Source: an uncultured virus (IMG/VR IMGVR_UViG_3300015360_000026)
Lineage: Duplodnaviria; Heunggongvirae; Uroviricota; Caudoviricetes
DNA: 64,000 nt
Strand: one strand, 5' to 3'
Virus record (IMG/VR): IMGVR_UViG_3300015360_000026
Of the stretch, positions 660-13,889 are shown one piece after another. A model generated the notes under the pieces. It was not told the DNA's origin. It saw nothing but the letters and a program-made list of their open reading frames with translations, and did no database searches. Every line of letters starts with the position of its first letter. The stretch's first letter is position 1. Made by a program: the position numbers and the translations under genes.

Positions 660-2180
660 TTACTCGGAGCTTCCCTGCCCCTGGACTTTTTGTTTCTTGT
701 GCCTACGGGCCGTACTCAAAATCGACGGACCGAACTCACCAAGTCGGACACCGTTGAACGCCCGGTTGTCCCAGTACACATCGGCCATGACCTTGCCGCT
801 GGAACCAGGAGGCTGGTCGGGGTTCTCGTTGATGTGGTCAAAGGGGATGCCATGCTCCTCCATCCACGTCTCGATCAACTTCGGGTTGTTGCGAACCGTG
901 AAGATGATAATCCGAACGCCCGCTTCGTGTAAGAGCTTCATCCACTTCTTCGCCCCGCGACGGGGCAGACCGATGAAGTCCGGGTCATGCGGCTGCTTCT
1001 CCTCGGCCAGCGTCCCGTCGAGGTCAACGGCCACCGAGAACCGGCGTTCCTTGTAGTCGGCAGCCGTCTTGTCGGCGTAGTGGTTGATGACCTTGACGGA
1101 CGGATCAGACCGCCACCGGGGAAGGTACGCCTTGTAGATCTGAGTGCCGACCTTGGCCTTGGCCACCCGCTGCTTCCGCCACTCAAGCTCGTCGAGGCCC
1201 ATGGCCTTCGGGTTGTACTTGCTACTCGACCGGTCGCGGGTCAATCGCTGCTCGACGAGGCGATCAAGCGGCGTGTCGATGAGGTGCCGCTCGTGGGCCT
1301 TGAGCAACTCAGGATCACCGTGCATGAGCTGCACGCCCTCAATGATCGACGGCACCTTGGCCTTCCGGATCGCATCCTCAACGAGCTTGCGGTTGTTCAG
1401 GCGACGCATGGCGTTCTTCTCTTCGGGGTCGAGGTGAGACACCTCCATGCCCTTCCACTGCTTCCACAACGGGTGGGCGTCGAGTGATACATGAGGCATC
1501 TTGTTTTCGCCCGACAACTTCTTGGCGTATGTCGTCTTGCCTGCCCCCGAGAAACCTGTGACGAGGATGTGCTTCAAAGCTGGCGGCAGCCCCTTCAGGT
1601 GCTTGAGCACCTCCATACGCTTCGCGTTCGCTGCCACCAGCGTCGGACTCAGGCCGTCCTGCTTCGACATGGCCATGGCTTCGTCAATGTCGTAAAGTCC
1701 CACGCCCTTGCGGGACACCGGCTCAACCAGCTTGTTACCGTGGGGCTCGCCCAGATCGCCGACGAAGTAGTGCGTCCGGGAACCCCGGTAGGTCTTGGCC
1801 CGCTCGGCCTGCTTTTTTCCGCTGTAGGGCGGCGACCAGTCCAACTCGTGCGGGTCGAATGGAAGAGGTCGGGGGTTGTGGACGTGGTATCCGCTTTCTT
1901 CCGCGAACTCGCGGACCGCAGCCGTCGCCGGGTCTTCACCAGGGTCGATGCCGCCACCGAACGTCAGGAAGTTGCCAGCGTCAGCGAGACCCCCGAAGAT
2001 TTTGCCGTCCTTCATGGCAAACATCTCGGCACGATCGCGGTACGGCTTCGGGTTGCTTTCTTGCGTGACGCCAGGCAGACTGGTACTCAGAGCCGCCAAC
2101 GCAGCCTTCGTCAGGCTGAGGCGGTCTTCCGGGACCCGTGGGGCCAGAATCCGCAAGATCGGATCTTCGGACTCAAACAT
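660..2180 (-). CDS. Nudix hydrolase / P-loop kinase / HAD phosphatase fusion (PNKP-like)
   Basis: Nudix box GGIDPGEDPATAAVREFAEESGY; Walker A ILVTGFSGAGKTT; HAD motif VAVDLDGT with FTVR and K..ADVYWD. Confidence 0.85.
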   Translation of the reverse strand: MFESEDPILRILAPRVPEDRLSLTKAALAALSTSLPGVTQESNPKPYRDRAEMFAMKDGKIFGGLADAGNFLTFGGGIDPGEDPATAAVREFAEESGYHVHNPRPLPFDPHELDWSPPYSGKKQAERAKTYRGSRTHYFVGDLGEPHGNKLVEPVSRKGVGLYDIDEAMAMSKQDGLSPTLVAANAKRMEVLKHLKGLPPALKHILVTGFSGAGKTTYAKKLSGENKMPHVSLDAHPLWKQWKGMEVSHLDPEEKNAMRRLNNRKLVEDAIRKAKVPSIIEGVQLMHGDPELLKAHERHLIDTPLDRLVEQRLTRDRSSSKYNPKAMGLDELEWRKQRVAKAKVGTQIYKAYLPRWRSDPSVKVINHYADKTAADYKERRFSVAVDLDGTLAEEKQPHDPDFIGLPRRGAKKWMKLLHEAGVRIIIFTVRNNPKLIETWMEEHGIPFDHINENPDQPPGSSGKVMADVYWDNRAFNGVRLGEFGPSILSTARRHKKQKVQGQGSSE

Positions 2181-2209
2181 TGACTTGTCCCCTTTTGGGG
2201 TGATAAGCT
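2180..2209 (+). promoter_or_regulatory. sigma70-like promoter of csrA
   Basis: TTGACT (2180-2185), 18 nt spacer, TGa-TAAGCT extended -10 (2204-2209). Confidence 0.5.
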
Positions 2210-2251
2210 AACCACGCCTCGGAAACGCTGACAACTCGAAAGGAGTCGATC

Positions 2252-2446
2252 ATGCTCGTACTTTCACGCAAGGCCGGCGAGAAGATCCACATTGGCGACA
2301 ACATCGTGTTGACCATCGTCGAGGTTCGCGGCAACAAGGTTCGCCTCGGCCTCGTGGCCCCGGCCGACGTTGCCGTGCACCGCGAAGAGGTCTTCGAGGC
2401 GATCAAGGCGTCGCAGGCGAACGCAGAGGTCGCGGCCCGGAGCTAG
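2252..2446 (+). CDS. csrA: carbon storage regulator CsrA/RsmA
   Basis: MLVLSRKAGEKIHIGDNIVLTIVEVRGNKVRLGLVAPADVAVHREEV is canonical CsrA; AAGGAG SD. Confidence 0.97.
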   Translation: MLVLSRKAGEKIHIGDNIVLTIVEVRGNKVRLGLVAPADVAVHREEVFEAIKASQANAEVAARS

Positions 2447-2994
2447 TCCGAGTCCGCCTTGCGGGTGCCGTTGCGACCGAGAACGCCGCGACGGCGAACC
2501 GCACACGTGATGTGGAAGTCGTACTCGCCCCCTTTGGGGCGAGACGACAGCCCGTAAGACCGCCGCAGCTTCTGAAGTTCCGGTGAGTGGATCGTTGTAA
2601 ACCACACCTTCTCCACGCCCGGCCACCCGTCAGGCTCCACTTCCTTCAGCCTCCCCAGCGTGTACGTGAACTGCTTGCCACGCTCCGTGATCTTGTCGAC
2701 GCCGCCGATCTCCTCGACCTCTTCCTTGCGGATGACCGAGATGTGAGCGTTGAACGGCTGGTCGCCGTGGCCCGGCGGCAACTCGACGCCCGGCTCCCTC
2801 ATAGACTTGAAGATGCCTCGCACCATGGCGTTGGGCACGGTGAGCATGATCCAGCCGCCGGGCGTCGCGTAGAGCGTCCCCGCCAGGTTGTACACCGGGA
2901 CAGGGACACCAGCCTCCTTGACAAACCGCTGGCCCAGGATGAAAGCAACCCGCTGGTGCACAGCGGGGCCGTTCGACACAGATAGCAGCGACAC
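2443..2994 (-). CDS. 2H phosphoesterase (2'-5' RNA ligase / cyclic phosphodiesterase / Acb1-like fold)
   Basis: two Hx(S/T) motifs, AHISV and FHITC, with 2H-typical spacing. Confidence 0.75.
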   Translation of the reverse strand: MSLLSVSNGPAVHQRVAFILGQRFVKEAGVPVPVYNLAGTLYATPGGWIMLTVPNAMVRGIFKSMREPGVELPPGHGDQPFNAHISVIRKEEVEEIGGVDKITERGKQFTYTLGRLKEVEPDGWPGVEKVWFTTIHSPELQKLRRSYGLSSRPKGGEYDFHITCAVRRRGVLGRNGTRKADSD

Positions 2995-3003
2995 GGTAGC
3001 CTC

Positions 3004-3444
3004 CTACTTAACGGTCGGCACGACGGTGAAGTACAACGTGAGGGCGGCGATGACGGCGGTGACGATCATACCGAGTACGCCCGCGACGATCTGCCCCCGT
3101 GACACGATCTTGGCCGTGTTCATGCCGTTGAAGTGTTTGTTGAGCTGGGTGATTCCGGTGGCAAGGTTGGCCAGGCTGTGCTGGATGAGGATGTGCTCAG
3201 TCTCAAGGTGGGACATCCGCTGCATGAGGGACGGCTGGCCGTTGCCGTCGCGGACGATTACCAACAGACTGGCGATGCTGTCATTAAGGGTGATCTGACT
3301 CTGTTGCATCTGACCCACGCACGCCGCCATCTTCACCTCGGCCGAGTGTGCGTCACGAAGGTCCTCCCGGAGTTGATCGACCGAGACCGTGAGCGTCTCC
3401 ATGCCGGCGGTCAGTTTGATGATGGACTGTTCGGTAGCGTTCAT
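3004..3444 (-). CDS. coiled-coil protein with C-terminal transmembrane helix (possible holin/lysis-associated)
   Basis: start MNATEQ at 3444 with GGAG SD; heptad-like region; GNGQPSLMQR; hydrophobic C-terminus IVAGVLGMIVTAVIAALTLYF. Confidence 0.6.
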   Translation of the reverse strand: MNATEQSIIKLTAGMETLTVSVDQLREDLRDAHSAEVKMAACVGQMQQSQITLNDSIASLLVIVRDGNGQPSLMQRMSHLETEHILIQHSLANLATGITQLNKHFNGMNTAKIVSRGQIVAGVLGMIVTAVIAALTLYFTVVPTVK

Positions 3445-3462
3445 CTGCAACTCCGTTTGCAG
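3445..3462 (-). promoter_or_regulatory. putative CsrA-binding hairpin covering the SD
   Basis: minus strand CUGCAA-ACGGAG-UUGCAG directly before ATG 3444; ANGGA in a hexaloop. Confidence 0.6.
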
Positions 3463-3477
3463 TTCGGGGCGAAGAGA

Positions 3478-3696
3478 GTGTCGTCGGCCGTGCTTGCCTC
3501 CCAGGATCGCCCACTCTGGGTCCAACGCCTCACCTCTTGCGAGGCTGGGCAACACGGTGGCTTAGCGGCGTTCCACCGATACCTCCAGGCACCCGGCCTT
3601 TCCGCCACGGTGCCCTTACCTCGGGTTTACGGCAGTCCCTGCCAACCCACGCTTACCTGCCGACGCCAGCAGCAAGGCAAGCACGACCGACGACAC
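3478..3696 (-). ncRNA. putative ~220-nt multibranch structured RNA
   Basis: 22-bp closing stem 3478-3499/3675-3696 (one G.U on minus strand) enclosing about six short hairpins; promoter just upstream. Confidence 0.7.
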
Positions 3697-3700
3697 CCGC

Positions 3701-3730
3701 ATTATCAAGGCAATCGTGCTTCAAAATCAA
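3701..3730 (-). promoter_or_regulatory. sigma70-like promoter for the structured RNA
   Basis: TTGATT (3730-3725), 18 nt, GATAAT (3706-3701); predicted start falls at the 5' arm of the stem. Confidence 0.5.
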
Positions 3731-4011
3731 GCCGGAGGAGCTTTGCGGGCAGGCACAGACACTCGGTGACCGGTGAACTCGCGGGCCTTGTGATATTTCC
3801 GGCCACACTCGCAGCGGGCACTGAGTGTCGCCAGGGCACGATCGCCACTCTGCTGCGTGTGGCTCCAAACGGGGCCTACGACCGTTTCCGCCCACTGACA
3901 CTGCACGTACACGCAGATTTGTTTGACCTTCTTCTCGTTTAGAGCTGACGCGAAGTGCACCGAAGCGGGGGCGACGAACTTGGACTTCTTCCGTGGTCGA
4001 AGGGGTGGCAT
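3727..4011 (-). CDS. small basic Cys-rich hypothetical protein
   Basis: 94 aa with GAGG SD; QCQW and CECG. Confidence 0.6.
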   Translation of the reverse strand: MPPLRPRKKSKFVAPASVHFASALNEKKVKQICVYVQCQWAETVVGPVWSHTQQSGDRALATLSARCECGRKYHKAREFTGHRVSVPARKAPPA

Positions 4012-4024
4012 TATTTCCTCCGTG

Positions 4025-4234
4025 TTAGCCGTTAATGTCGTCGAGCGGCTTACCCTCTATGGCTCGGTTGTAGCCCCGACGCCACGCTCCGCGACGTTGC
4101 CGTTGTACGCCCTGGCCGATCTTGTACGGTTGATCGTTACGACCGGCCAGGGCGTCTTCGTACCCTCGACGGTAGCACGAGAAGAGATGCTTCTGCCAGC
4201 GAAACTTGGCGTCGCGTGGGTGTACCTTGGACAT
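4025..4234 (-). CDS. ribosome modulation factor (RMF/CrpP)-like small protein
   Basis: YRRGYEDALAGRNDQPY...RRGAWRRGYNRA follows the RMF pattern RGY.A...GR....PY......W..G(W/Y)..A. Confidence 0.55.
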   Translation of the reverse strand: MSKVHPRDAKFRWQKHLFSCYRRGYEDALAGRNDQPYKIGQGVQRQRRGAWRRGYNRAIEGKPLDDING

Positions 4235-4248
4235 TGGCGGTGCCTATG

Positions 4249-4287
4249 AAAATTGACCGGCCGGGTAGTCATTACCCGGCCGGTCAA
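4249..4287 (-). terminator. perfect 15-bp hairpin, possible intrinsic terminator
   Basis: TTGACCGGCCGGGTA-gtcat-TACCCGGCCGGTCAA, followed by a short U run on minus strand. Confidence 0.55.
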
Positions 4288-4329
4288 CCTGGTGTCCTCC
4301 ATCCCCGGAGGACTTGATCGGACGGGGAT

Positions 4330-4638
4330 TTACTTCGCCTTCTTGGCCTTCTTCCCCTCGTCCGTGATCTGATAGATCTTGTGGATGCTACTGGTCTCCG
4401 GATCGCTGCTCTCACCCGTCACGGACAACCACCCCTTCTTCGTGCAAGACTCGACCGTCTCGCGGTCGGCCTTGGCACCAGCGACGGCCGTTCCCTTCGC
4501 CGTCTCAACCGTGGTAGCCGACTTGGGCTTACCGTCCTTGGTCACAGTCCGAACACTGATCCGTCGTCCGCCGGCAATCACGTCCAAGATCGCCTTCTGC
4601 TTTGGTGTCGGTTTGGACACCTTCACTGTCGTCGCCAC
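4330..4638 (-). CDS. small basic protein, possible winged helix
   Basis: GGAGG then GTG; TPKQKAILDVI, KGWL, YQITDEGKKA. Confidence 0.55.
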   Translation of the reverse strand: MATTVKVSKPTPKQKAILDVIAGGRRISVRTVTKDGKPKSATTVETAKGTAVAGAKADRETVESCTKKGWLSVTGESSDPETSSIHKIYQITDEGKKAKKAK

Positions 4639-7457: not shown

Positions 7458-7685
7458 TCATACCTTCTGGTTTCGCACAGCCCACGCGGCGATGCCCGCC
7501 TTGGTGAGGCTCAGCTTCTTGCGGACGCGGGCGGCGTACGTGCGGACAGTTTCGTACCCAAGGTCCAGCTCGTCAGCGATGTGCTGGTAAGTCTTCCCTT
7601 CGGCGATCCCTCGCACCACGGCCAGCTCGCGATCCGACAGTTCCTTGTCGGAAGCCACATCGTTCTCCAATAGAGCTGCCATCAT
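7458..7685 (-). CDS. LuxR/GerE-type HTH regulator
   Basis: LSDRELAVVRGIAEGKTYQHIADELDLGYETVRTYAARVRKKL; ATGA overlap with upstream gene. Confidence 0.88.
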   Translation of the reverse strand: MMAALLENDVASDKELSDRELAVVRGIAEGKTYQHIADELDLGYETVRTYAARVRKKLSLTKAGIAAWAVRNQKV

Positions 7686-8575
7686 TGGGAAAGTAACTCC
7701 GTAACCCGCTCCACCTTGTCGTTCGGCTCGCCGACCGGGTAAAGGTCGTCGGGCCACGGCCGGTTCGGGGACGCCTCGTAGGCGATGGCGTCGGAACCGC
7801 TGATGGTGAGTGTGGGTGCATCCCAACGGTAATGAAATGCGAGGAGTTCGTCAATCTTGGCCTTACGGTCTGAGGCCATGATCCAGTCCCGCTTCCGGGC
7901 GTTGGGGGCAGCCGTTGCGATCTGCCGGTGCTGCTCATACCCGCGACCGTTGTCGCCCCGGACGCCGACGATGTGGTGGAACGGCAAACCAGGCACCGTC
8001 GCCAGGCGGACCCGGCTTTCGCCCAGCTTCCGCACCAGGTCGACCAGAGGCTGCTCGCGGTTGCTGTACGAGACCTCGGGCCACAGTTCCCTGCGGCCCA
8101 TGAGCGTCGAGATGGCCCCCCGCTCCTCGGGGTGACCGGTGGGGTTCTGGTAGTTGACGAAGAACAGCTCGTGCGAGTCATAGAAGTAGTAGAGGCTGTC
8201 CTCCAACATCGTCATCGCCTCGGGTACGGTCAGCTGCCGCTTCATCTGGTCCCGGAGACGGTACTCGTGGTTCTGGTTGTCGTCGTCCCAGATCGCCAGG
8301 TACTCGCCGTAGGACATCGCCATCGCGTGCACGACGCCCTCGCACCCGACTCGGACCGATCGCTTATAGACACGGATCTTCACGTCGTGGGGGAGGTTCA
8401 TGTACATCCACGACCGAATACCGTCCACGTAGGAGGCGTCGTTGGCGACGATCACCAACTCCTTGTTGGCATAGGACTGACCCTGGAAGTTCAGGATCGC
8501 CCGCTGGAGCAAGCCCCAGCGGTCGGGCTTGCTGACGCACATGCAGCTCACAAGAGGCTCGTCGGACATGTCCAC
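7682..8575 (-). CDS. glycosyltransferase family 2
   Basis: PLVSCMCVS, QSYANKELVIV, GEYLAIWDDD. Confidence 0.85.
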   Translation of the reverse strand: MDMSDEPLVSCMCVSKPDRWGLLQRAILNFQGQSYANKELVIVANDASYVDGIRSWMYMNLPHDVKIRVYKRSVRVGCEGVVHAMAMSYGEYLAIWDDDNQNHEYRLRDQMKRQLTVPEAMTMLEDSLYYFYDSHELFFVNYQNPTGHPEERGAISTLMGRRELWPEVSYSNREQPLVDLVRKLGESRVRLATVPGLPFHHIVGVRGDNGRGYEQHRQIATAAPNARKRDWIMASDRKAKIDELLAFHYRWDAPTLTISGSDAIAYEASPNRPWPDDLYPVGEPNDKVERVTELLSQ

Positions 8576-13739: not shown

Positions 13740-13813
13740 ACCCACCGGCGGGACTCGAACCCGCATAATCCCGCTTAGAAGGCGGTCGCTCTACGCGATT
13801 GAGCTACGGGAGG
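13740..13813 (-). tRNA. tRNA-Arg(UCU)
   Basis: AGCUCAA D-arm, CCGC-CUUCUAA-GCGG anticodon arm, GCGGG-UUCGAGU-CCCGC T-arm; one acceptor mismatch; no encoded CCA. Confidence 0.88.
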
Positions 13814-13817
13814 ATAG

Positions 13818-13889
13818 TCGGGGTGGCAGGACTCGAACCTGCGACTTCATGGTTATGAGCCATGCGAGCTGCCTCTGCTCTACACCCCA
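13818..13889 (-). tRNA. tRNA-Met(CAU), initiator-like D arm
   Basis: UGGGGUG/CACCCCG acceptor, CAUGG-CUCAUAA-CCAUG, GCAGG-UUCGAGU-CCUGC. Confidence 0.9.

Follow-up and report, generated by a model that had tools for sequence, protein, structure and literature searches.

Leaders and small RNAs bound by CsrA, together with multi-helix riboswitches, are the described systems closest to the RNA element reported here, which is encoded on the minus strand at positions 3698–3476 of a 64,000-nucleotide (nt) stretch of DNA from an uncultured virus (IMG/VR record IMGVR_UViG_3300015360_000026), hereafter called the window. In the glgC leader, an upstream GGA hairpin tethers CsrA, which bridges to the Shine–Dalgarno (SD) sequence, the bridging range between sites being 10–63 nt. 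The Escherichia coli moaA leader contains a molybdenum cofactor (Moco) riboswitch aptamer bound by CsrA at two sites. The repeats of CsrB read CAGGA(U/A/C)G, and the consensus from in vitro selection (SELEX) places GGA in a hairpin loop (passages cited here from PMC7652899). Phage-encoded CsrA/RsmA homologues have been surveyed as proteins (Campa et al. 2021, PMC8450108; Sobrero and Valverde 2020, PMC7366521); the passages drawn from these surveys mention no cognate phage RNA target and no conserved csrA cassette. Neither this RNA nor csrA comes up in section 3.4.9 of a jumbo-phage review, where RNA repair and 2H enzymes are treated (PMC7824862).

The window RNA belongs to a family of structured RNAs that is undescribed and not in Rfam 15. 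Judged by its sequence context, it is the promoter-driven 5′ leader of an operon of two genes, encoding a protein of 146 amino acids (aa), p146, and a 2H phosphoesterase; the operon converges on a csrA gene, itself a phage CsrA homologue of the surveyed kind. We propose that the window RNA, as a member of a giant-phage family, controls this operon with CsrA as the most likely effector, a reading to which we give about even chances.

As in glgC-type leaders, a hairpin-borne upstream GGA is combined with a second GGA at the SD sequence, which in the window is an ACGGAG hexaloop before the AUG. Unlike in those leaders, the upstream sites of the phage RNA lie inside a large pseudoknotted domain, and in the window the sites are at least 67 nt apart along the linear sequence, beyond the range quoted above unless folding draws them closer. 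The moaA leader is likewise a complex folded 5′ leader with GGA sites ahead of a ribosome-binding site, and by analogy dual control through fold and CsrA is conceivable for the phage RNA. However, the two have no sequence or Rfam relation, and the phage RNA is distinguished by seven helices, a kissing loop between L2 and L5 and its own csrA beside it.

Among small RNAs, CsrB/CsrC and RsmX/Y/Z (Rfam RF00018, RF00084, RF00166, RF00195 and RF02144) offer another comparison; CsrB and RsmZ are bead-on-a-string hairpins in which GGA or A(R)GGA recurs, within loops and single strands, roughly once per 15–20 nt. The phage RNA shares with these RNAs its own promoter, several unpaired GGA and a P3 loop similar to the CAGGA(U/A/C)G repeat, but its GGA density is much lower, its tertiary fold is rigid, its place is that of a leader and it matches none of their covariance models. 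Lysine and purine riboswitches are multi-helix aptamers stabilised by loop–loop contacts. The phage RNA is comparable in its multi-way junction closed by P1, its covarying kissing loop and its position in a 5′ untranslated region, whereas it matches no Rfam riboswitch model and its conserved core is nearly all purine.

A family of structured RNAs in contigs of large phages

The RNA lies in the 281-nt gap between the open reading frames (ORFs) of p94 and p146, where the initial annotation had recognised no known RNA family. Searches of Rfam 15 bear this out: the whole window contains no family for the RNA at gathering score; the interval 3300–3900, searched at E up to 10, yields only three chance eukaryotic matches of 12–17 bits; and nothing was found in 12 homologous loci at gathering score or in L101/L102 at E up to 1. 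The closing stem described initially at 3478–3499/3675–3696 is real, being an inverted repeat of 22 nt with 95% complementarity and arms 175 nt apart. As minus-strand RNA it grows to a helix, P1, of 24 base pairs (bp), formed by 3698–3675 with 3476–3499 at pair probabilities of ~1.0. Its only internal irregularity is, as had been stated, a wobble pair that exists on the minus strand only (U3686.G3488). A pattern for the P1 arms has two matches in the window, which are both arms, against 0.01 expected. The minimum free energy (MFE) of the minus strand from 3698 to 3476 is −128.2 kcal/mol, compared with −100.9 ± 4.6 for 200 shuffles (z −5.98; 0/200 as good); the plus strand folds less well (z −4.68). 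The nearest record to the window, a 208-kb IMG/VR phage contig (G001), carries the RNA region unchanged. Only one copy of the element occurs in the window, and the near-complete genomes (G001, G002 and G006) likewise have one each.

No GenBank phage contains a relative of the gap (blastn) or of the 2H protein or p146 (tblastn). Relatives of p146 are scarce, with 6 at E ≤ 1e-3 among 57 candidates, and the p146 alignment A2 was used to pull 44 loci from metagenome contigs of the Joint Genome Institute (JGI). R1, a model built on the window RNA as its only sequence, scored in four of them, each time immediately upstream of the p146 homolog (L018, 25.2 bits; L016, 17.2; L022, 16.6; L025, 12.7). 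L017, L019 and L020, the last identical to L021, were added by reading the regions upstream of p146, and L096, located in a 194-kb viral contig, was found by a pattern for the 3′ hairpin. A covariance model (R2) was then made from eight homologs (alignment A5) with the window left out. In 82 sources with 358,834 bases it had ten matches and no others, namely the eight training sequences, L009 and the window. The match in L009 (4775–4972; 70.2 bits, E 2e-19) belongs to G002, a 229-kb phage reached via the 2H protein, while the window was matched at 3483–3685 on the minus strand with 52.2 bits (E 5.9e-14).

A second pattern, based on the RNA only, gave seven viral loci. Five were confirmed by R2, namely L107 (the contig of L096) and the new L108, L110, L112 and L113; L109 and L111 are chance matches. 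The first pattern, for helix P7, had 0 matches in viral contigs and 38 in genome contigs (L058–L095); the latter are also attributed to chance, none of them scoring with R2. No RNA copy was found in bacterial and archaeal genomes, searched by one narrow pattern only, and no related loci were found in viral contigs with p94 or the 623-aa protein as query. In total the family comprises 14 distinct sequences (alignment A7) of about 190–225 nt, residing in uncultured-phage contigs of 150–230 kb; eight of the 14 loci were reached via p146, one via the 2H protein and five by RNA pattern alone. Neither this RNA nor the cassette was found described in the literature searched, which left subscription journals and bioRxiv supplements outside.

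Secondary structure, covariation and a kissing loop

Comparative analysis indicates that the RNA is a seven-helix fold closed by P1, in which L2 and L5 join in a kissing loop of 6 bp that locks it into a pseudoknot. All positions in this paragraph are on the minus strand. P1 (3698–3675 / 3499–3476) varies in arm length from 8 to 24 bp across the family. Its common core of 8 bp (3682–3675 / 3499–3492) has compensatory changes at 7/8 pairs and 97.3% of cells paired. P2 (3674–3658) and P7 both abut P1. The former consists of 5 bp (3674–3670 with 3662–3658) closed by a 7-nt loop, L2 (CUGGCGU, 3669–3663), with 100% of cells paired and 4/5 pairs compensatory. The joining strand J2/3 (3657–3650) carries the motif GGUWAG, in the window GGUAAG preceded by A3658. 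P3 (3649–3621), which corresponds to helices 4–6 of the covariation test, ends in the apical loop AGGGACU (3640–3634) with GGA at 3638–3636. It is followed by J3/4 (3620–3617) and by P4 (3616–3586; helices 7–8 of the test), whose loop in the window is GGAAAG. J4/5 (3585–3581) makes, together with G3586, an invariant GGWGG (GGAGGU in the window). P5 (3580–3553) pairs 3580–3572 with 3561–3553 around the loop L5, ACGCCGCUAA (3571–3562), and 8/9 of its pairs are compensatory, as are 8/8 in P6 (3550–3527), the tip of which reads GCCUC-GCAA-GAGGU in the window. J6/7 (3526–3521; GUUGGA) makes with C3520 a conserved GGAC. P7 (3520–3500) pairs 3520–3514 with 3506–3500 around the loop L7 (UGGGCGA, 3513–3507), and shows 99% of cells paired and 4/7 pairs compensatory.

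The initial annotation had drawn six hairpins inside the closing stem. Five of them match comparative helices (P2, P3, P4, P5 and the tip of P6), whereas CCCA/UGGG is replaced by P7. The hairpin CUGCUG/CGGCAG is present as P2, but with 5 bp and a 7-nt loop instead of 6 bp and a tetraloop. The comparative P2 and P7 also differ from the lone MFE fold of the window. The initial annotation had missed two elements discussed below, the kissing loop and a hairpin that encloses the ribosome-binding site.

The covariation among homologs that had been named as a check is present in the 14 sequences, where 53/60 pairs are changed on both sides, against 31.7 in shuffles. A7 was fitted to the model. Since its sequences are related, such shuffle counts are not probabilities; controls with slid columns keep the relatedness. 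Counting A7 with the kissing loop, 92.6% of cells form standard pairs versus 71.2 ± 1.0% in column shuffles, and only 35.1–45.1% do so when the 3′ partner is slid by 1–3 columns. The covariation score is 0.696, compared with 0.280 for shuffles (0/500 reach 0.696) and 0.127–0.167 for slid columns. Alignments produced by MAFFT only, with no model fitting, contain compensatory changes at 35/48 and 37/54 pairs.

When every pair of unpaired columns was scanned for antiparallel runs, one helix stood out, the kissing loop. It was absent from the covariance model behind the alignment and therefore provides independent support. In the nine-row scan 53/53 cells are paired; in the 14 sequences pairing is 100% and 6/6 pairs are compensatory, with sequences that differ between lineages. 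For instance, L2 and L5 read GAACAC and GUGUUU in L016, AGGUAC and GUACCU in L019, and UGUCAC and GUGACA in L020. In the window, UGGCGU (3668–3663) faces ACGCCG (3571–3566) on the minus strand.

Conservation of single strands was counted over 12 lineages, dropping the near-duplicates L025 and L110. The 22 unpaired columns conserved in at least 11 of the 12 comprise 15 G, 5 A, 2 U and 0 C. GGUWAG (GGU[U/A]AG) in J2/3, GGA in the P3 loop (AGGA in 11, GGGA in 2, UGGA in 1) and GGWGG in J4/5 are each found in 14/14 sequences. J6/7 contains GGAC in 12/14 and GGGC in 2, and L7 with the next two bases reads YAGGGGAUC in 12/14, the window and L113 having GGGCGAUC. Four AGGU(A/G) repeats had been pointed out initially: the first (J2/3) and third (J4/5) indeed fall on invariant motifs, whereas the second (J3/4) and fourth (in P6) are not conserved. 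Similarly, of two loops said to show GGA, that of P3 proved invariant and that of P4 is not conserved across the family. Two further ideas on these strands were dropped: a two-tier G-quadruplex from GG tracts, as the window and L017 lack the second GG of J2/3; and a possible resemblance between L7 and the helix 45 loop of 16S rRNA, for which the paired/unpaired context differs.

Leader position and the conserved cassette

A sigma70-like promoter at 3701–3730 on the minus strand consists of a −35 element TTGATT (3730–3725), an 18-nt spacer and a −10 element GATAAT (3706–3701). It had been proposed initially, and it is the sole sigma70-like match in 2200–4400, with 0.5 expected. Transcription is expected to start near 3694, within the P1 5′ arm. 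Promoters of this type occupy the same place in L016 and L019 (by scan) and in the other homologs (by eye), ending 6–9 nt ahead of P1 across members. Downstream, the first gene of the operon, p146 (3004–3444, minus strand), begins at an ATG preceded by GGAG. The distance from the P1 core to the chosen start codon is 19–47 nt, start codons being ambiguous between two in-frame AUGs in several homologs. A further promoter would not fit into this interval, and transcripts of p146 and the 2H gene would therefore have to run through the RNA. Among the roles suggested initially, a leader fits best. In most low-GC members a U-rich tract follows P1 (UUUUAAUU, UUUUUUAUU, UUUUACAC), and the combination could give partial termination there; the window (CUCUCUUCGCC) and L009 have no U-tract behind P1.

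The ribosome-binding site of p146 is predicted to lie in a hairpin at 3445–3462 on the minus strand (CUGCAA-ACGGAG-UUGCAG), whose hexaloop displays the GGA of the SD sequence (3454–3452) and whose 3′ arm abuts the AUG at 3444. We folded the last 33 nt ahead of the start codon in 13 lineages. In 8/13 the MFE structure is a hairpin that encloses A-N-GGA and ends ≤4 nt from the start codon. In four others the purine-rich SD sequence pairs with a pyrimidine tract after P1, and in L112 nothing convincing forms. In L017, the 3′ arm of P1 plus the U-tract can pair with the SD sequence instead. A hairpin of the same kind precedes the GUG of the 2H gene in L009, which indicates that it is the RNA, not p146, that the hairpin accompanies.

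The cassette runs in the order promoter, RNA, SD hairpin, p146, 2H gene and convergent csrA, its genes being located by tblastn with window proteins. The 2H gene stands downstream of the RNA in the same orientation in 14/14 loci. The gene for p146 is inserted between them in 13/14, the RNA of L009 lying directly ahead of the 2H gene. A csrA near the RNA had been part of the initial annotation. This gene (2252–2446, plus strand; PF02599, 85.6 bits with a cut-off of 27, profile positions 1–52 of 53) is convergent with the p146–2H operon, its 3′ end overlapping that of the 2H gene by 4 nt, and 12/14 RNA-bearing loci have a convergent csrA after the 2H gene. All five loci found from the RNA pattern alone hold the full cassette. 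Further upstream, a gene for a LuxR-type helix-turn-helix (HTH) protein is present in most loci, and p94 relatives precede the RNA in four (L016, L025, L019 and L022; tblastn).

An N-terminal coding extension of p146 into the RNA, which the initial annotation had raised as a competing explanation, is not conserved coding sequence. The in-frame opening varies among homologs, reaching from 27 to ~116 nt into the RNA; the called proteins P0001–P0003 begin at the ATG; and the alignment contains 1- and 2-nt indels together with compensatory pair changes.

CsrA as candidate effector and competing explanations

CsrA is the best candidate effector on account of the likeness of the P3 loop to CsrB repeats, the SELEX rule of GGA in a hairpin loop and the glgC-like SD hairpin. 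Two features of CsrA-controlled leaders are found in the window: a GGA at the SD sequence presented in a hairpin loop, and an available CsrA protein, encoded by the phage csrA. In the mechanism that we suggest, the leader would control expression of the p146–2H operon, and the effector would be the phage CsrA encoded convergently in the cassette, although host CsrA may act too. CsrA would bind the invariant A/G-GGA of the P3 loop, the exposed GGA in J4/5 and J6/7 and the ACGGAG loop over the SD sequence. As an outcome, ribosome entry would be blocked or read-through altered. The rigid pseudoknotted core may act as a tether or a platform that sets geometry; alternatively, it may respond to another signal besides CsrA, in the manner of the moaA leader of E. 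coli.

Several observations weigh against control by CsrA. The nearest upstream exposed GGA (J6/7, 3523–3521) lies 67 nt from the GGA of the SD sequence, just outside the bridging range of 10–63 nt, and those in J4/5 and the P3 loop are farther away in linear sequence, although the RNA fold could shorten these distances. The GGA content, compared with dinucleotide-preserving shuffles, is ordinary in the window (6 in 191 nt versus 4.0 ± 1.5 expected, P 0.155) and low in L017 (3 versus 4.5 expected). Within the family range of 3–14, L009 (14 versus 8.7) is the only individually significant row, and over ten related rows the enrichment is modest (77 versus 58.7 ± 5.6), even though 58/77 triplets are unpaired while unpaired columns make up only 44%. 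The P3 loop is the only universal GGA, and the window has none in J2/3, J3/4 and L7. The invariant GGUWAG, GGWGG and GGG.GAUC exceed the known needs of CsrA, for whose binding a pseudoknotted seven-helix core is also unnecessary; both would suit ligand binding or some other tertiary role. L017 has no csrA within its 6.2-kb locus, the csrA of G002 (L009) is 93 kb from the RNA, and L023 and L024 (70% GC) carry p146, the 2H gene and csrA with no RNA in the short upstream spacer. Finally, since eight of the 14 loci were found via p146, the linkage to p146 is partly by construction.

The elaborate fold, the motifs beyond GGA, the ordinary GGA count and the few sites of L017 make a ligand-sensing aptamer a serious rival, though one that we consider rather unlikely, and the same facts make a dual-input leader of the moaA type a serious rival too. 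In such a riboswitch, the P1-closed junction and the kissing loop would make up a small-molecule aptamer, its occupancy determining whether p146 and the 2H gene are read through or translated, and the adjacency of csrA would be incidental or a second input. By pure conjecture from the 2H enzyme, the ligand might be nucleotide-derived, with 2′,3′-cyclic nucleotides, cyclic phosphates of ADP-ribose and cyclic oligonucleotides of immune signalling as candidates. The complex, rigid and strongly covarying fold with its tertiary contact speaks for sensing of this kind, as do the clustering of invariant nucleotides in junctions and loops, the fixed place directly upstream of one operon in 14/14 loci and the U-rich tract after P1 in low-GC members, and the competing pairings of L017, where the P1 3′ arm and U-tract compete for the SD sequence, follow the logic of an expression platform. 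However, conserved unpaired positions that are nearly all purine would be odd for a binding pocket and typical of GGA/AGG recognised by protein, no known class matches in Rfam, and no alternative-pairing switch can be demonstrated family-wide, many members pairing the SD sequence with a pyrimidine tract. A dual-input ribo-regulator is a more doubtful variant, in which the aptamer would sense a small molecule of infection or defence (e.g., a cyclic-phosphate nucleotide destroyed by the 2H enzyme) in addition to phage CsrA; if true, the two inputs would time a membrane protein, possibly lysis-related, and an RNA- or nucleotide-healing enzyme. Equally doubtful is the CsrA sponge that the initial annotation had offered as one option, i.e., a free small RNA ending at P1 that titrates host or phage CsrA/RsmA in trans, and for the window copy this is the weakest of the three after the CsrA leader and the ligand or dual-input designs. 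The own promoter, the U-rich tract of most low-GC homologs, the 6–9 GGA per RNA in most members (75% unpaired), the resemblance of the P3 hairpin to a CsrB repeat and the close csrA would all suit it. Nevertheless, an ordinary GGA density disfavours a free CsrB-like sponge: GGA occurs about once per 21–63 nt, not significantly above dinucleotide shuffles in 9/10 sequences tested, and the window has a single A-R-GGA site (counted on the sequence). In addition, the window and L009 have no U-tract that could serve as a terminator, a separate p146 promoter has no space, no Csr/Rsm family of Rfam matches, the one copy per genome always stands as a leader, and a rigid, pseudoknotted core sets the RNA apart from CsrB and RsmZ, whose hairpins follow one another like beads on a string.

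The other explanations concern roles outside cis regulation. An RNA-repair function, as a Y-RNA-like scaffold or as a substrate or decoy for host RNases that works with the 2H enzyme and the NUDIX-kinase-HAD protein, is improbable, even though the 2H phosphoesterase adjoins in 14/14 loci and a NUDIX/P-loop-kinase/HAD-like protein is encoded nearby in the window (660–2180). Y RNAs have a long closing stem from their 5′ and 3′ ends that resembles the one seen here, and G002 encodes a TROVE/Ro60-like protein (G002:C1:202649–203659, L104–L106; 545-aa frame, 134 bits summed) 18 kb from its RNA copy, beside which a Y RNA may exist. However, TROVE is absent from 2/3 near-complete RNA-bearing genomes (G001 and G006), 3476–3698 contains no tRNA-like module (ARAGORN finds only the tRNAs at 13740–13889, Rfam nothing), and cis regulation is favoured by the SD hairpin and by the place of the RNA as a leader; identification of the element itself as a Y RNA (YrlA-like) was rejected, as Ro occurs in 1/3 genomes and the tRNA-like module is missing. 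Still less probable is an SD-like decoy titrating 30S subunits via GGAGG- or AGGU-type single strands. The invariant GGWGG of J4/5 and GGUWAG of J2/3 and an RMF-like ORF in the window (25 bits, below cut-off) would fit it, but the RMF-like gene is in no homologous locus, one RNA per genome could not titrate ribosomes, and no test result speaks for a decoy role; of the initial suggestions, the decoy and scaffold found no specific support. A DNA-level element, with the inverted repeat as ends of a miniature inverted-repeat transposable element (MITE), an attachment site or an origin, is of negligible probability. The 22-bp repeat does flank 175 bp, yet it is single copy, its arms covary as RNA pairs, vary from 8 to 24 bp and have G.U wobbles on one strand only, and the covariation of the internal helices contradicts a DNA role as well.

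Genes around the element

The window has a G+C content of 63%. The tail-anchored membrane protein p146 contains a coiled coil, a conserved VRDGNGQPSLMQR motif and a C-terminal membrane helix, and has no match in Pfam or PHROG. Atlas features are XhlA-like (0.92), a lead only, from which p146 may be lysis-related. The p146 family, recognised by the VRDGNGQPSLMQR motif and the C-terminal membrane helix, is widespread in low-GC phage contigs; ~30 distant relatives of 28–38% GC (L026–L057) have no RNA, 2H gene or csrA. In L023 (1–610) and L024 (1–430), the coding region reaches to ~65 nt before p146, the RNA being lost or elsewhere.

The second gene of the operon (2443–2994, minus strand) encodes a 183-aa 2H phosphoesterase of the 2H-SAK type (PF22547, 48.7 bits, cut-off 27). 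Both H-x-S/T motifs, NAHISV and DFHITC, can be read in its translation, and a sequence search of the PDB gave nothing below E 0.6. A 506-aa protein with NUDIX, P-loop-kinase and HAD-like parts is encoded at 660–2180 on the minus strand (AAA_33, polynucleotide-kinase-like PHROGs and a C-terminal HAD-like phrog_1238), and with the 2H enzyme it constitutes an RNA- or nucleotide-healing gene set. This gene and csrA are divergent, with a 71-nt spacer. In the leader of csrA (2181–2251, plus strand), GGA occurs twice behind a TTGACT −35-like hexamer, once in CGGAAAC and once, at the SD sequence, in AAAGGAGUC, which may point to autoregulation. A second csrA copy is found in the 194-kb G006 (163471–163632, L100; 50.4 bits), ~90 kb from the copy in the cassette.

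Directly upstream of the RNA, p94 (3727–4011, minus strand) encodes a 94-aa basic Cys-rich protein, the 3′ end of the gene being overlapped by the leader promoter. Its coding region contains an inverted repeat (3758–3775/3812–3829; 18 nt, 83% complementary, 36-nt spacer). The RMF-like ORF follows at 4025–4234 on the minus strand (69 aa; Pfam RMF 25.0 bits, below the cut-off of 27.9) and is absent from every homologous locus by tblastn. A LuxR/GerE-type HTH protein with likeness to sigma-70 region 4 (7458–7826, minus strand; profile match) has relatives upstream of the cassette in L016, L018, L019, L025, L107, L108, L110 and L113, and is a possible transcription factor for it. Adjacent genes for tRNA-Arg(TCT) and tRNA-Met(CAT) were predicted at 13740–13889 on the minus strand by ARAGORN and Rfam.

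Biological significance

With its seven helices and perfectly covarying kissing loop, the family is a high-quality new class of structured RNA, whatever its function. RNAs of this kind have repeatedly proved to be riboswitches, ribozymes or cores of ribonucleoproteins. All predictions made here are open to testing in E. coli reporter assays and on RNA transcribed in vitro, so that the uncultured host is not needed. For phage CsrA, the family offers a concrete and conserved candidate RNA target, a leader sharing a cassette with csrA in at least a dozen lineages of 150–230 kb phages. Control of this kind would be post-transcriptional and tied to a 2H phosphoesterase, an enzyme placed in the RNA-repair and counter-defence repertoire of phages by the section of the jumbo-phage review cited above (PMC7824862).

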